A stretch of DNA of 64,000 nucleotides from Escherichia coli (GTDB lineage Bacteria > Pseudomonadota > Gammaproteobacteria > Enterobacterales > Enterobacteriaceae). The stretch is from the NCBI RefSeq assembly GCF_003991155.1, contig NZ_CP031293.1; one strand, written 5' to 3'. Below the pieces are notes generated by a model. The model did no database searches and was not told the DNA's origin. It saw nothing but the letters and a program-made list of their open reading frames with translations. Below, in pieces: positions 43,067-48,528 of the stretch. The position numbers and the translations under genes were made by a program. Positions within the stretch are counted from its first letter, which is position 1. Each line of letters begins with the position of its first letter.

Positions 43067-44303
43067 TGAATATTCGATTCTGCTGATTGATGATGATGCA
43101 GATGTGCTGGACGCCTACACACAGTTACTTGAACAGTCAGGCTATCGGGTTTTTGCCTGTAACAATCCTTTTGAGGCGCAGGCGTGGATACAACCAGACT
43201 GGCCAGGCATTGTGCTAAGTGATGTGTGTATGCCTGGCTGCTCTGGTATCGATTTGATGATGTTATTCCACCAGGATGATCAACAGATCCCCATTCTGCT
43301 TATCACCGGGCACGGCGACGTGCCAATGGCAGTTGATGCGGTAAAAAAAGGCGCGTGGGATTTTTTGCAAAAACCGGTTGATCCCGGCAAATTGCTTTCT
43401 CTGGTTGAAGAGGCGCTACGCCAGCGTCAATCAATCATTGCGCGTCGTCAGTATTGCCAACAGACATTGCAGGTGGAGTTGATAGGGAGAAGTGAATGGA
43501 TAAATCAGTATCGGCGACGTTTACAGCAGTTGTCTGAGACAGATATTGCCGTCTGGCTCTACGGTGCCCCTGGCACAGGACGGATGACCGGTGCACGTTA
43601 TCTGCACCAATTTGGACGTAATGCACAAGGCGAATTTGTCTACCGCGAGCTGACACCAGACAATGCACCACAGCTTAATGATTTCATTGCGCTGGCTCAG
43701 GGGGGAACATTAGTGCTCAGCCATCCTGAACACCTGACGCGTGAACAGCAGTACCATCTGGTTCAGTTACAAAGCCAGGAACACAGACCTTTTCGCCTGA
43801 TTGGTATTGGAGACACCTCGCTGGTCGAGCTGGCCGCCAGCAACCATATCATCGCGGAGCTCTATTACTGCTTTGCAATGACACAAATCGCTTGCCTGCC
43901 ATTAACTCAACGCCCCGACGATATTGAACCACTGTTTCGCCACTACCTTTGTAAGGCATGTCAACGGCTTAACCATCCTGTTCCGGAAGTGGGAAAAGAG
44001 ATGCTCAAAGAGATGATGCGCCGCATGTGGCCAAATAATGTGCGAGAGCTGGCCAATGCAGCAGAACTGTTTACTGTAGGAATATTACCGCTGGCAGAAA
44101 CAGCAAACCCGTTGATGCACGTCGGAACCCCGGCACCGCTTGACAGGCGAGTGGAGGACGCTGAGCGACAGATAATCACAGAGGCGCTTAATATCCATCA
44201 GGGGCGTATCAATGAGGTTGCTGAATATTTACAAATCCCACGGAAAAAACTCTATCTCAGAATGAAAAAATACGGTCTTAGTAAGGAGCATTATAAAATT
44301 TAA
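43056..44303 (+). CDS. pgtA: NtrC-family (sigma-54-dependent) response regulator of the phosphoglycerate transport system
   Basis: Receiver domain (ILLIDDDADVLDAY ... VLSDVCMPGCSGIDL), AAA+ sigma-54 activator core (GAPGTGR) and C-terminal helix-turn-helix. ATG 43056 gives 415 aa, matching my recollection of Salmonella PgtA; the ORF-track start 43047 is also an ATG. Confidence 0.85.
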   Translation: MLSSEYSILLIDDDADVLDAYTQLLEQSGYRVFACNNPFEAQAWIQPDWPGIVLSDVCMPGCSGIDLMMLFHQDDQQIPILLITGHGDVPMAVDAVKKGAWDFLQKPVDPGKLLSLVEEALRQRQSIIARRQYCQQTLQVELIGRSEWINQYRRRLQQLSETDIAVWLYGAPGTGRMTGARYLHQFGRNAQGEFVYRELTPDNAPQLNDFIALAQGGTLVLSHPEHLTREQQYHLVQLQSQEHRPFRLIGIGDTSLVELAASNHIIAELYYCFAMTQIACLPLTQRPDDIEPLFRHYLCKACQRLNHPVPEVGKEMLKEMMRRMWPNNVRELANAAELFTVGILPLAETANPLMHVGTPAPLDRRVEDAERQIITEALNIHQGRINEVAEYLQIPRKKLYLRMKKYGLSKEHYKI

Positions 44304-44324
44304 CCATCAGACTTGTGAGCTTGT

Positions 44325-44552
44325 TCATAATGTTATGTCATTTGTGTGATTCATAGACATCGTTTCAATTTTCTCAGCAAGTTCAAAGTAGTGTTCCATC
44401 GGAGTTTTACCGTTGTGAGCGCTATGAGGACGTTCCCAGTTATAGTAATGCTGCCATTCTGCCAGCAGTTCCTTCAGGTCATCAGCAGAAAGATCTACGG
44501 TAGCGTAAAACTCAGCTTTGTTCACGATCACCAACATCGTAAATGGCTCCAC
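44325..44552 (-). mobile_element. IS3-family transposase C-terminal fragment
   Basis: ...LAEWQHYYNWERPHSAHNGKTPMEHY... is the conserved integrase-core C-terminal signature (YN-x-ERPHS) of IS3-family transposases; only about 75 codons remain. Confidence 0.6.
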
Positions 44553-44854
44553 CTCGATACCTGCCAGTTCATGAGATTAGTCGAATCCGATGTTCCCCGC
44601 GTTATGTGCCCGAAGCGTTGTTGCCAGCCCCTGCCTGTAGCATGGACTGGTCCGGCAGCCGGTACTCGCTGCTGTTCGAATTGTTCGTGCTCTCATGGCT
44701 AAAAATCAGCACCGTTGATGCCGTCAGGAAACAACTTAAAATTAGCTGGAATGCCGTTGACGGCATTATGACTCGTGTGGTTAAGCGCGGTCTGTCCCGG
44801 ATGAAAAAGCCTTTATTAGCACGTCATATGAATGTAGACGAAGTCGCCTTTAAA
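44543..44854 (+). pseudogene. ISL3-like transposase N-terminal remnant, interrupted by the IS66 insertion
   Basis: ...LKISWNAVDGIMTRVVKRGLSR...ARHMNVDEVAFK, continuing after the IS66 element (47554 onward) as ...YRYITVISDRNGRTLELTDD in another frame. This resembles the ISL3-family pattern (GIDEFAFRKGH-Y-TVV-D) as I recall it. Confidence 0.4.
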
Positions 44855-44907
44855 GTAAGCGCCTCATCTGAACCGTCTGGTCTGTTTCCTCCGGCTCCAC
44901 AAAAATA

Positions 44908-45585
44908 ATGTCCATCATTTTTAATGGACACTATCGTATGGAATACCGGACCTGGATCACCGAAGCTTTACGTCTTCACTTTGAAGAACATTTACCACGG
45001 ATTGTGGCCGGACGTCGCCTGGGCGTACCAAAATCAACAGTTTGTGGTATGTTCGTGCGCTTCCGCAAAGCTGGCCTTTCATGGCCTCTGCCCGCAGGTA
45101 TGTCGGAGCGGGAACTTGATGCCCGTCTTTACGGGAGTGCCTCCACAGTACCTGTCGTACTTACTGAAAACACCGTTATGTCCGAAGTCCCGGTGGTAAA
45201 AAAACGTCCCCGGCGGCCTAATTTTCCTTATGAGTTTAAAATCGCCTTAGTGGAGCAGTCACTGCAGCCCGGAGCCTGTGTGGCGCAGATCGCCCGTGAA
45301 AACGGAATCAACGATAACCTGCTCTTCAACTGGCGCCATCAATACCGGAAAGGTGGCCTGCTGCCTTCCGGAAAAAATATGCCTGCACTGCTTCCCGTGA
45401 CGTTAACGCCGGAGCCGGATAATAAAATCCCGGCTCCGGCACAGGAACCAGAGCAGATAAATACACCGTCCGACAGTCTGTGCTGTGAGCTGGTTCTGCC
45501 GGCCGGAACTCTCAGGCTGAAAGGTGAACTGACACCGGCGTTATTACAGACACTTATCCGCGAAATGAAAGGGAGCAGCCACTGA
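44908..45585 (+). CDS. IS66-family orf1 (TnpA-like accessory protein)
   Basis: First ORF of the IS66 element; helix-turn-helix region ...FKIALVEQSLQPGACVAQIARENGINDNLLFNWRHQYRKGG. Confidence 0.8.
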   Translation: MSIIFNGHYRMEYRTWITEALRLHFEEHLPRIVAGRRLGVPKSTVCGMFVRFRKAGLSWPLPAGMSERELDARLYGSASTVPVVLTENTVMSEVPVVKKRPRRPNFPYEFKIALVEQSLQPGACVAQIARENGINDNLLFNWRHQYRKGGLLPSGKNMPALLPVTLTPEPDNKIPAPAQEPEQINTPSDSLCCELVLPAGTLRLKGELTPALLQTLIREMKGSSH

Positions 45586-45932
45586 TGATATCTCTCCCTG
45601 CAGGTTCGCGTATCTGGCTGGTTGCCGGTATCACCGACATGCGAAATGGCTTTAACGGCCTGGCCTCAAAAGTTCAGAACGTCCTGAAGGATGACCCGTT
45701 CTCCGGACACCTGTTCATCTTCCGCGGACGCCGGGGTGACCAGATAAAAGTGTTGTGGGCTGACAGCGACGGACTGTGCCTCTTCACCAAACGCCTGGAG
45801 CGGGGCCGCTTCGTCTGGCCGGTCACCCGTGACGGCAAGGTGCACCTTACTCCGGCCCAGTTATCCATGCTTCTTGAGGGCATCGACTGGAAACATCCAA
45901 AACGAACGGAACGCACTGGCATCCGCATATAA
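45585..45932 (+). CDS. IS66-family TnpB (orf2)
   Basis: 115 aa; MISLPAGSRIWLVAGITDMRNGFNGLA...HLFIFRGRRGDQIKVLWADSDGLCLFTKRLERGRFVWP matches the conserved IS66 orf2 as I recall it; ATGA start overlap with orf1. Confidence 0.85.
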   Translation: MISLPAGSRIWLVAGITDMRNGFNGLASKVQNVLKDDPFSGHLFIFRGRRGDQIKVLWADSDGLCLFTKRLERGRFVWPVTRDGKVHLTPAQLSMLLEGIDWKHPKRTERTGIRI

Positions 45933-45951
45933 CCCGTTGTAAAGTGAGGAT

Positions 45952-47523
45952 ATGGACACCTCACTTGCTCATGAGAACGCCCGCCTGCGGGCACTGTTGC
46001 AGGCGCAACAGGACACCATCCGCCAGATGGCCGAATACAATTGCCTGCTCTCACAGCGGGTGGCGGCTTATGCTTCTGAAATCAACCGGCTGAAGGCGCT
46101 GGTTGCAAAACTGCAGCGCATGCAGTTCGGTAAAAGCTCAGAAAAACTTCGCGCAAAAACCGAACGACAGATACAGGAAGCACAGGAGCGAATCAGCGCA
46201 CTTCAGGAAGAAATGGCGGAAACACTGGGTGAGCAATATGACCCGGCACTGCCATCTTCCCTGCGCCAGTCTTCAGCCCGTAAACCGTTACCGGCTGCAC
46301 TTCCCCGTGAATCCCGGGTTATCCGGCCGGAAGAGGAATGCTGCCCGGCTTGTGGTGGCGAACTCAGTTCTCTGGGATGTGATGTGTCAGAGCAACTGGA
46401 GCTTATCAGCAGCGCCTTTAAGGTTATCGAAACACAACGTCCGAAACTGGCCTGTTGCCGGTGCGACCATATCGTGCAGGCACCAGTACCTTCAAAACCC
46501 ATTGCACGCAGTTATGCCGGAGCGGGGCTTCTGGCTCATATCGTCACCGGGAAGTATGCAGACCATCTGCCGTTATACCGCCAGTCAGAAATATACCGTC
46601 GTCAGGGCGTGGAACTGAGCCGCGCCACGCTGGGGCGCTGGACCAGTGCCGTTGCTGAACTGCTGGAGCCGCTGTATGACGTGCTGCGCCAGTATGTGCT
46701 GATGCCCGGTAAAGTCCATGCGGATGATATCCCCGTTCCGGTCCAGGAGCCGGGCAGTGGTAAAACAAGAACTGCCCGGCTGTGGGTTTACGTCCGTGAT
46801 GACCGTAACGCCGGTTCACAGATGCCCCCGGCGGTCTGGTTCGCGTACAGCCCGGACCGGAAAGGTATCCATCCACAGAATCACCTGGCCGGTTACAGCG
46901 GTGTGCTTCAGGCCGATGCTTACGGTGGTTACCGGGCGTTATACGAATCCGGCAGAATAACGGAAGCCGCGTGTATGGCCCATGCCCGGAGAAAAATCCA
47001 CGATGTGCATGCAAGAGCGCCTACCGATATCACCACGGAAGCCCTGCAGCGTATCGGTGAACTGTATGCAATCGAGGCAGAGGTCCGGGGATGTTCAGCA
47101 GAACAGCGTCTGGCGGCAAGAAAAGCCAGAGCTGCGCCACTGATGCAGTCGTTGTACGACTGGATACAGACTCAGATGAAAACACTGTCGCGTCACTCGG
47201 ATACGGCAAAAGCGTTCGCATACCTGCTGAAACAGTGGGGTGGCCTGAACGTGTACTGCAGTAATGGCTGGGTGGAAATCGACAACAACATCGCAGAGAA
47301 CGCCTTACGGGGAGTAGCCGTAGGCCGGAAAAACTGGCTGTTCGCAGGTTCCGACAGCGGTGGTGAACATGCGGCGGTGTTGTACTCGCTGATCGGCACA
47401 TGTCGTCTGAACAATGTGGAGCTAGAAAAGTGGCTGCGCTACGTCATTGAGCATATCCAGGACTGGCCGGCAAACCGGGTACGCGATCTGTTGCCCTGGA
47501 AAGTTGATCTGAGCTCTCAGTAA
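45952..47523 (+). CDS. IS66-family transposase TnpC
   Basis: 523 aa with N-terminal coiled-coil/leucine-zipper region, CxxC...CxxC zinc motif (CPACGG...CCRCDH) and DDE core; conserved C-terminal ...[23 protein letters not shown]... Confidence 0.85.
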
Positions 47524-48101
47524 ATATCAATACGGTTCTGACGAGCCGCTTACCCTTTAAAAAGGTATAGGTATATAACAGTAATATCTGATCGTAACGG
47601 ACGGACGCTGGAATTAACCGATGACCGCAGCACAGAGAGTAGGGGATGCGGACGGTCAAAGATCGCGGCGTTGGATTTTATAAATCTGTCTCCAGTAGTA
47701 GATGAACTGAATACAAAGTTGCCAGAGAGTGGTCTGTCAGGCAGGGAATCAGAAACTGGATATTATTGACTGGTACATTGTGTCGGGCTGTGTACGTTCT
47801 CCCCGGACAGACAGTCTCAGTTCGTAGAATCTATAAATTACTGCTACTGATGCTGCCGGGGAAAGGCGTAACGAAAAAACAGCCTCCGTTACCGGACAGC
47901 AAGGAGGCTGAATGGAGTTTACAGGATTTGCTTTTTTATAATGTCTGGCCATGCAGTAAAACCGGACAGGTTTTATTATCATGTGAGGTATTCTGACATA
48001 AAATGCTGGATTTTTATTTTGTGACGAATGCTGCAAAATTGAATCTGCACTCTGATGTAACTTTTATCTGTTTCAGTGAAGCATGCCCACAAATTGAGTT
48101 A

Positions 48102-48335
48102 TTAAGTTGTGGAAGAACAGTTTTGTCCCGCCTGCATCTCTCCTTTCAAAAACCAGTATGTTGCCATGCCTCGCCTTAATGGAGAGCGCTGAACCACACC
48201 TTCTTTTTCCAGTAATAACAGGTAATAGCGTGCCTGATAATCCGTTACCGCCAGCGCCTCCGCAATTTCTGCGGTTTTCCCTCCATTATGCCTGTTCAGA
48301 AATTCCAGTATTTCATTCTTCATATATTCACTCAT
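48102..48335 (-). CDS. papI: P-fimbrial phase-variation regulator PapI
   Basis: 77-aa protein [66 protein letters not shown]... matches PapI as I recall it; divergent from papB across the regulatory region. Confidence 0.9.
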
Positions 48336-48528
48336 CTCACTGTAACAAAGTTTCTTCGAATAATAAAAATCATGCTCTCTGTTATCAACGGAAAGGTATT
48401 TTTATTCTCTATGTTTGCTTTATTTGTGAAATTTAGTGAATTTGCTTTTTGTTGGCTTTATTTGATGTGTATCACATTTTGTGTGTTATTTTTCTGTGAA
48501 AAGAAAGTCCGTAAAAATGCATTTAGAC

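Follow-up and report, generated by a model that had tools for sequence, protein, structure and literature searches.

Concerning the insertion sequences (IS) of the IS66 family, ISCro1 was originally named in Citrobacter rodentium ICC168, a strain with 24 copies of it (PMC3072379), while IS679 and IS66 belong to the functionally studied members (Han et al. 2001, J Bacteriol 183:4296; Machida et al. 1984; both as cited in PMC6778807). An 8-bp target duplication is the rule for the family (PMC6778807). In ST131 Escherichia coli, an ISCro1 copy inserted into the regulatory sequences of the afa/dr fimbriae reduces the transcription of afaA (PMC8764528).

The element described here was found in an E. 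coli window—the whole stretch of DNA that was analysed, 64,000 nucleotides in length—between the convergent genes pgtA, ending at 44303, and papI, ending on the minus strand at 48102. Their 3' ends leave a gap of ~3.8 kb, inside which the IS sits, and the setting is a pathogenicity-island-like region, an island of the uropathogenic E. coli type (FDAARGOS_1284). The structure almost certainly arose by simple transposition of an ISCro1-type IS66-family IS into a dead ISL3-family fragment (Table 1). It is an ordinary event of a known kind, involving no new mechanism or gene family, and public annotation already recognises the element.

Table 1 Features of the pgtA–papI gap, with positions given in the window
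Feature	Coordinates	Strand	Remarks
IS481-family transposase remnant (ISEc18-like)	44336..44521	-	codons ~237-287 of 323; Pfam rve_3
Dead ISL3-family (ISEc53-like) transposase fragment, left part	44519..44854	+	codons ~54-166; 1-bp deletion near 44652
Left target-site duplication CCTTTAAA	44847..44854	.	sequence read
ISCro1-type IS66-family IS, complete	44855..47553	+	2699 bp; BLAST matches to other copies begin and end at exactly these bases
Terminal inverted repeats IRL / IRR	44855-44876 / 47532-47553		22 nt, 19/22 matching; tips GTAAGCG
tnpA	44908..45585	+	225 aa, helix-turn-helix accessory protein; Pfam HTH_Tnp_1 (PF01527), E = 6.8e-15
tnpB	45585..45932	+	115 aa; Pfam TnpB_IS66 (PF05717), E = 2.7e-40
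tnpC	45952..47523	+	523 aa, DDE transposase; starts 19 bp downstream of tnpB
Right target-site duplication CCTTTAAA	47554..47561	.	sequence read
Dead ISL3-family fragment, right part	47562..47640	+	codons ~167-192; 2-bp deletion in the A-run adjoining the target site

Anatomy of the IS66-family element

All three genes of the element are full length and annotated as intact in the RefSeq record NZ_CP070170.1, which holds two IS66-related places. The order is that of the family, with tnpA (helix-turn-helix) and tnpB (IS66 Orf2-like) lying 5' of tnpC, the start codon of tnpB overlapping the stop codon of tnpA (TGATG, one base in common at 45585) and a short gap separating tnpB from tnpC. RefSeq names the tnpA product IS66-like element accessory protein TnpA, and the PGAP name for TnpC is just the generic "IS66 family transposase". 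TnpC is a DDE transposase of the IS66 type, matching DDE_Tnp_IS66 (PF03050) with E = 1.5e-103 over profile positions 1-283 of 284 and, additionally, the Pfam domains LZ_Tnp_IS66, zf-IS66 and DDE_Tnp_IS66_C.

The terminal inverted repeats, positioned at the exact ends, represent the longest inverted pair of the region found by a repeat search (86% complementary); 16 other copies share these tips. A degenerate pattern of these repeats occurs exactly twice in the window, at the two ends of the element, and in none of 100 dinucleotide-preserving shuffles of the window. In the IS66 family, the terminal repeat is about 20-30 bp long, with a consensus beginning GTAAGCG; a literature search on that consensus found nothing useful. 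The first-pass annotation, made from the letters alone, had described an intact IS66-family element of 2.7 kb with matching GTAAGCG terminal repeats, and both the description and the size agree with the full-length reading frames, Pfam matches, inverted repeats and measured length.

Target-site duplication and the empty site

At the left boundary, CCTTTAAA runs to 44854 and is followed by the element start GTAAGCGCCTCATCTGAACCGT; at the right one, the element end ACGGTTCTGACGAGCCGCTTAC at 47553 is followed by CCTTTAAA again. The duplication—already recognised in the first pass as identical 8-bp flanks—is perfect and found as a single copy in empty sites, the chance of the same 8-mer abutting both tips being, by an arithmetic estimate, ~4^-8 = 1.5e-5. 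It should be noted that these repeats do not belong to the IS itself, since other copies with the same end bases have different 8-mer flanks. The interval previously proposed for excision, 44855..47561, comprises the IS plus one duplicate and is exactly right. The overall span of 44543-47760 needs adjustment: a chimeric reading frame has its ATG at 44543, the ISL3 homology starting from ~44519, and 47760 lies too far, the homology ending at ~47640.

The in silico removal of 44855-47561 left 1094 bp used as the empty-site query. In 24 complete E. coli genomes, an uninterrupted site matches this restored sequence with 100% identity, and 46 genomes cover 80% or more of its length. The restored sequence is collinear with ISEc53 of the ISL3 family (88% nucleotide identity over 418 bp), unbroken across the excision junction. 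No rearrangement has followed the insertion, as shown by the intact state of the two duplicates and by the collinearity of the flanks with the empty sites. Alternatively, two IS66 copies might have undergone homologous recombination and left a hybrid, or the element might be a relic that is inert, its CCTTTAAA flanks being coincidental or part of the IS. Recombinants do exist, as illustrated by the mismatched flanks GAAGACAG / TTTCCTTC in CU42ET-1; here, however, the flanks are identical and collinear with the 24 natural empty sites at 100%, other copies share the end bases within unrelated flanks, and the three reading frames are full length in 2699 bp byte-identical to duplication-flanked copies elsewhere. 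The collinearity and those identical copies already refute such an origin, leaving it with a vanishingly small probability.

Disrupted ISL3-family fragment and the neighbouring IS481 remnant

The frame-corrected ISL3 fragment matches Pfam HTH_Tnp_ISL3 (E = 1.5e-10), and its match to Zn_ribbon_ISL3 is weak, below the Pfam cut-off. As in ISEc53, one can recognise the zinc-ribbon tail, the helix-turn-helix and the beginning of the DDE domain (~33 residues); in contrast to ISEc53, only codons ~54-192 of 406 are present, with no IS ends and with two frameshifts. The fragment is homologous to ISL3 elements without being one itself; codons 1-53 are missing, and the DDE domain is lost almost entirely. 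Both frameshifts, i.e. the 1-bp and 2-bp deletions, occur in the empty sites, too, and thus pre-date the insertion. The target is a remnant of an ISL3 element that was dead before the insertion. Of the former proposal of a disrupted "ISL3-like transposase gene", the ISL3 homology stands, but the target is a dead internal fragment and not a gene.

Concerning the left-hand neighbour, taken originally for an IS3-family fragment, its closest intact relatives are single-ORF transposases of 323 residues from the IS481 family (ISEc18), with 92-99% nucleotide identity, and an intact copy labelled by PGAP as IS481 family shares 99.3% identity with the segment 44370-44521. The rve_3 domain is common to both the IS3 and IS481 families; the two ORFs with programmed frameshift that go with the IS3-family label are not what these relatives have, so that the fragment is an ISEc18-like IS481-family remnant. 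It includes a piece of the terminal inverted repeat (~44340-44367), matching both ends of an intact IS481-family copy, and has an internal deletion of ~92 bp that is not present in CU42ET-1.

The course of events was almost certainly as follows. TnpC, made together with the accessory TnpA and TnpB, joined both IS ends to the target DNA, the target being cut with an 8-bp stagger, as suggested by the duplication and the known behaviour of the family; repair of the gaps then duplicated CCTTTAAA. The target was non-functional DNA, i.e. an already truncated and frameshifted ISEc53-like fragment abutting the IS481-family remnant. No live gene was interrupted, and the insertion is thus most likely selectively neutral.

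Distribution, mobility and age

The occupied site was found in only one of 5426 complete genomes (FDAARGOS_1284), its gene neighbourhood recurring in at least 14 draft-assembly contigs. It is identical over 7572 bp in the two draft assemblies compared (GCA_013078245.1 and GCA_014327205.1), and the remaining 12 of the at least 14 contigs were matched by gene neighbourhood. With regard to the checks proposed with the first-pass annotation—excision in silico and variation of position in related genomes—the restored sequence aligns across the junction with the ISL3-family ISEc53 and equals natural empty sites, the site is empty in the 24 complete genomes and occupied in the one, and the IS is present at other sites as well. 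The insertion marks one sublineage. As a clean lineage-specific marker, it could serve for typing a clone carrying pap/papG-III.

The element occurs elsewhere in closely similar form: an identical TnpC is encoded at seven other distinct sites, and at five other sites the copies with identical TnpC, differing by 0-2 nucleotides, have perfect 8-bp duplications (ATTTTTTC, TTATGAGT, CCACATTA, GCAGAATC and TTATTAAG). Together with more distant ISCro1 copies, flanked by CTTTCGCC and ACACAATC, this gives seven other insertion sites with different perfect duplications. Byte-identical 2699-bp copies flanked by target-site duplications are among those at other sites. Because such identical or nearly identical copies occur elsewhere, each site having a different 8-bp duplication, the element is apparently still mobile, now or recently, and we infer the activity of the window copy from them; this would make it an ISCro1 variant currently mobile in E. 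coli chromosomes. Some other copies have no matching duplications, e.g. the one in CU42ET-1 mentioned above, suggesting that those sites were rearranged afterwards; rearrangement is indeed promoted by the IS66 family, but the pgt-pap site has been spared. A 27-mer from the left end of the IS, searched for in the whole genome-contig collection, matched no C. rodentium contig; the matches were 25 contigs (mostly contig ends) of Escherichia sp. MOD1-EC7003, indicating an expansion of the IS there, and three gut MAG contigs. An association of ISCro1 with ISEc53 on plasmids was considered and rejected as a coincidence of independent neighbours; in the plasmid case, ISCro1 lies inside a clbS-like gene and is flanked by a duplication of its own, ACACAATC, an intact ISEc53 being located alongside.

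With regard to age, the insertion may reasonably be called recent, as it was in the first pass, in view of the perfect duplication and the byte-identical copies elsewhere, but it is not private to one isolate, since the neighbourhood occurs in the at least 14 draft contigs. The age is only loosely bounded because, along the neighbouring 12.4 kb of the pap region, even the closest empty-site complete genome reaches just 99.2% identity. That same divergence would fit a different history, in which horizontal transfer or homologous recombination brought in the segment from pgt through the IS debris and the IS66 element to pap with the IS already in place, instead of the IS being received in the strain's own ancestry. 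The region has the character of an island and is mosaic, since in K56-43 other left-hand genes adjoin the IS481/ISL3 debris and papI, and the occupied allele is spread over those draft contigs. On the other hand, 100% identity over 7.6 kb in two assemblies fits a single clone equally well, and an import would leave the nature of the structure unchanged, with transposition still at its origin. Such an import is considered rather unlikely, and simple transposition is retained as the explanation of the structure in either case.

Genomic setting and possible effect on papI

The IS genes are oriented toward papI, whose 3' end is 548 bp distant, with an Rfam AS-pc02-like element in between. Taken together with the ST131 afa case (PMC8764528), this arrangement might suggest that the regulation of P fimbriae is altered by antisense transcription from tnpC toward papI, or by displacement of the sequence that follows papI, and that the insertion has been selected for. 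The IS is, however, positioned downstream of papI, outside the papI-papB regulatory region, and a scan of 44250-48400 for promoter and terminator consensus sites revealed no excess over shuffles, so that the scan lends no support to a regulatory effect. A non-neutral insertion is accordingly held to be very improbable, the neutral one being preferred.

In other pap-bearing genomes, several distinct breakpoints or IS ends lie within ~200 bp, and in ~830 other genomes the end of an IS3-family element is located at a distance of 17-20 bp. The "recombination hotspot" suggested earlier draws some support from these breakpoints, but the comparative support is only modest. It is highly doubtful that the IS-debris scar downstream of papI could be a preferred IS landing pad, the occupant of which might modulate papI/P-fimbrial expression via read-through antisense transcription; if it were, the site would be comparable to that of ISCro1 at the ST131 afa locus. 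The significance of the insertion beyond bookkeeping is small; it is another example of how IS elements accumulate in the dead DNA that adjoins the fimbrial operons of pathogenicity islands, where they supply homology for later rearrangements.

Comparison with known systems

The window element equals ISCro1 in length (2699 bp), three-gene layout, protein sizes (225/115/523 residues), tips of the inverted repeats and 8-bp duplications. With same-length copies labelled by PGAP as "IS66-like element ISCro1 family", it has 95.1-96.7% nucleotide identity (95.1% with the common plasmid type), and with the proteins of one such copy it has 209/225 (TnpA), 113/115 (TnpB) and 509/523 (TnpC) identical residues. 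By the ISfinder convention, isoforms have at least 95% nucleotide identity. The window variant, its ISCro1-type label being based on the PGAP-labelled copies, is close to this limit. The element forms a distinct sequence variant, matches of 99% or more being limited to 23 E. coli records and 26 plasmids.

IS679 and IS66 reportedly have the order tnpA-tnpB-tnpC, with tnpB overlapping the tnpA stop codon, tnpC ~20 bp downstream and inverted repeats of the GTAAGCG type. The window element is like these elements, as described, in gene order, overlap, tnpC spacing, type of inverted repeats and 8-bp duplication. As for ISCro1 at the ST131 afa locus, the same IS type adjoins a fimbrial operon of the chaperone-usher class there, likewise on a genomic island, and other strains carry other IS at that place; it lies, however, between divergent promoters and lowers transcription, whereas the IS of the window is located downstream of papI, in the debris of dead IS.

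Structure of the element and its target site

The first-pass annotation described an intact IS66-family element between pgt and pap, a reading borne out, at the coordinates it gave, by its inverted repeats, three ORFs and their Pfam domains (see the table). As read over 44300-48100, the left edge consists of CCTTTAAA at 44847-44854 followed directly by GTAAGCGCCTCATCTGAACCGT, and the right edge of ACGGTTCTGACGAGCCGCTTAC, ending at 47553, and a second CCTTTAAA at 47554-47561. The terminal repeats, 22 nt long and 86% complementary, are the longest inverted pair that the repeat search found in the region; their degenerate form occurs in only two places of the 64-kb window, i.e. both IS ends, and was not found in 100 shuffles. 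The three ORFs enclosed by them all lie on one strand, the DDE_Tnp_IS66 profile being matched over its whole length in the 523-aa ORF (E = 1.5e-103). The 2699-bp element is complete and presents all structural hallmarks of the IS66 family; tnpA, tnpB and tnpC are annotated as intact IS66-family genes also in the RefSeq record NZ_CP070170.1.

Features of the pgtA-papI region and its surroundings (window positions)
Feature	Position	Strand	Remarks
cdiB/cdiA contact-dependent inhibition locus and toxin modules downstream	17003-37112		cdiA 9.9 kb
IS481-family (ISEc18-like) remnant	44336-44521	-	rve_3 domain; keeps a piece of terminal inverted repeat
Left inverted repeat	44855-44876		
tnpA ORF	44908-45585	+	225 aa; HTH_Tnp_1
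tnpB ORF	45585-45932	+	115 aa; TnpB_IS66 (E = 2.7e-40); one base shared with preceding stop codon
tnpC ORF	45952-47523	+	523 aa; LZ_Tnp_IS66, zf-IS66, DDE_Tnp_IS66, DDE_Tnp_IS66_C
Right inverted repeat	47532-47553		
AS-pc02 (RF02876)	47773-47949	-	full-length Rfam match; 53.2 bits vs gathering score 40
papG-III	56169-57176		

In silico excision of 44855-47561 gave a 1094-bp product, which served as a search query. Between pgtA and papI, it is present at full length and 100% identity in 24 complete genomes of E. coli, and coverage reaches 80% or more in 46 genomes. In the junction alignment, a single CCTTTAAA is present in three genomes with the empty site (the same locus lacking the IS66 element) as well as in intact ISEc53, an ISL3-family relative of the interrupted sequence. 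Window matches to other IS copies begin and end at the IS ends, give or take a few bases. Flanks were inspected for 17 other copies, representing 13 distinct sites once duplicates had been merged; the tips are alike in all of them, except for a slightly diverged left repeat in one more distant ISCro1 copy, and the flanks are unrelated. Seven sites exhibit perfect 8-bp duplications, each different (ATTTTTTC, TTATGAGT, CCACATTA, GCAGAATC, TTATTAAG, CTTTCGCC and ACACAATC), one has a duplication of 9 bp, and four have mismatched flanks, as expected from IS-mediated rearrangement. With one CCTTTAAA in empty sites, and the same tips within unrelated flanks elsewhere, the repeats around the element are a target-site duplication, as had been proposed.

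Several near-identical copies in other assemblies (loci L007/L017/L019, of CU42ET-1 and GCA_040565995.1, and L008, L009 and L011) have non-matching flanks, e.g. GAAGACAG / TTTCCTTC, L008 and L009 having the right flank in common and different left ones; such flanks indicate IS-mediated deletions or inter-copy recombination at those loci.

Remnants around the insertion

The excised sequence aligns to ISEc53 without a break across the junction (88% identity over 418 bp). That it stems from an older ISL3-like transposase is correct; calling it a gene, or an N-terminus, was slightly generous, the aligned part (44519-44854 plus 47562-47640) covering codons ~54-192 of the 406-aa transposase. Its frame-corrected translation contains HTH_Tnp_ISL3 (E = 1.5e-10) and a Zn_ribbon_ISL3 match below Pfam's cut-off, whereas DDE_Tnp_ISL3, present in full-length ISEc53, is essentially absent. 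Compared with ISEc53, the frame is shifted twice: 1 bp is missing near 44652, and 2 bp are missing from an A-run at 47562-47566, adjoining the target CCTTTAAA. Both deletions are found in empty sites too, and the latter was therefore not caused by the IS66 insertion; since the truncations and frameshifts already exist there, the ISL3 sequence had long been dead and doubly truncated when the IS66 element inserted.

The left neighbour, previously taken for an IS3-family fragment, belongs elsewhere: the closest intact relatives of its rve_3 fragment encode a 323-aa transposase in a single ORF and carry the label IS481 family / ISEc18. One such copy is 99.3% identical to 44370-44521 (codons 237-287) and matches 44340-44367 with its terminal inverted repeat. 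Between these pieces lies an internal deletion of ~92 bp, which is lacking in strain CU42ET-1. The order is the IS481 remnant, then the ISL3 remnant with the IS66 element nested in it.

The nesting implied by the earlier term "IS graveyard" is real, and a recombination hotspot between pgt and pap receives modest support from comparative data. The segment 47579-48101 is conserved next to papI in about 830 pap-carrying complete genomes. In the genomes inspected, the end of an IS3-family element carrying an AL1L pseudoknot lies at ~47579, at a distance of 17-20 bp from the target of the IS66 element; in locus L025 it directly abuts the conserved segment. In other genomes the break falls at ~47748 or ~47765. 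The three positions have equivalents in L025 and L026, and the junctions, several and independent, lie within 200 bp. K56-43 has the same IS481/ISL3 debris with different left-hand genes, and the pap region of other papG-III islands contains two ISCro1 (strain 16843), ISEc23 (IS66 family; TUM13754) and ISEc12 (IS21 family; BH100).

The AS-pc02 match ('antisense to pHK01_099') sits between the ISL3 remnant and the papI 3' end. Because of this match, and of the ~70% identity of 47840-48040 to a non-coding region 3' of finO and an ANR-family gene in about 3700 F-type conjugative plasmids, a plasmid-type non-coding element adjoins the pap operon.

Distribution, age and activity

Some match to this IS exists in 3049 of 5426 complete genomes, and 1492 have a place covering at least 80% of it. 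Position and copy number vary, with a median of 2 and a maximum of 34 places per genome and an occupied pgtA-papI site in one complete genome only, E. coli FDAARGOS_1284, the chromosome of which (NZ_CP070170.1) is 100% identical to the window region (window position = NZ_CP070170.1 position - 724750). An exact-protein look-up revealed the same neighbourhood on draft assemblies, at loci L013 (with 12 similar places) and L021, both with the same junctions and 0 mismatches over 7572 bp. Hence more than a single isolate carries the insertion, which is fixed in a sublineage. Its perfect duplication and undiverged IS agree with the proposed recent origin, but the complete-genome collection bounds the age only loosely, the nearest empty-site genome being only 99.2% identical in the adjoining 12.4-kb pap region.

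Same-length copies labelled "ISCro1 family" by PGAP, sitting on E. coli chromosomes and about 1400 Enterobacterales plasmids, are 95.1-96.7% identical to the window IS. Since a match of at least 99% is confined to 23 records of E. coli and 26 plasmids, it is one of the rarer variants of an IS that is itself very common. Many public assemblies encode exactly the same TnpC protein. Byte-identical 2699-bp copies at two other loci (L014 and L020), each with its own duplication, and copies differing by 1-2 nt at five further places argue strongly, if indirectly, that the element in its present form is transposition-competent.

Elsewhere, two canine E. coli strains carry a group II intron (reverse transcriptase/maturase) within a 98.6-98.7% identical copy, and mouse strains M6-M19 an IS3-family element within ISCro1; IS66 elements serve as targets themselves. 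In the draft genome Escherichia sp. MOD1-EC7003, 25 contigs contain a 27-mer taken from the left end of the IS, mostly at their own ends, which indicates a large ISCro1-type expansion in a non-coli Escherichia; the presence of the 27-mer in three contigs from gut MAGs, placed in Segatella, Collinsella and Lachnospiraceae, is probably due to mis-binning.

Genomic setting and consequences

The surroundings are island-like, comprising cdiB/cdiA with orphan toxin modules, nanXY, pgtP/pgtCBA, several transposase remnants and papI-papB-papA...papG-III-papX. The orphan modules, 3' of cdiA, are of the VENN-motif type and lie with DUF596 immunity-like genes amid IS4 and other transposase remnants. PGAP names papG-III only generically, as 'PapG carbohydrate binding domain-containing protein', and uses 'P fimbria tip G-adhesin PapG-III' for most relatives, which suggests a divergent or altered allele in this strain.

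The IS is located in dead DNA between the convergent 3' ends of pgtA (+, ending at 44303) and papI (-, ending at 48102), at a distance of about 550 bp from either gene. The two flanking pseudogenes are labelled "integrase core domain-containing" and "helix-turn-helix domain-containing" in RefSeq. The insertion disrupts neither a live ORF nor any known regulatory region. Most likely, the insertion has no effect. Read-through antisense transcription from the IS might influence papI regulation, an idea that the effect reported for ISCro1 at afa in ST131 makes slightly more thinkable (PMC8764528); it is nevertheless very improbable, as no known regulatory region is hit and a consensus scan of 44250-48400 gave no sign of new promoter- or terminator-like signals around the IS. 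ISCro1 itself received its name in Citrobacter rodentium, whose genome has come to contain 24 copies of it (PMC3072379). Except for the IS3 label, which should be IS481, and the state of the ISL3 target, the first-pass annotation was correct. The present insertion is a textbook IS66-family event of a known and already annotated type, ordinary and well explained.
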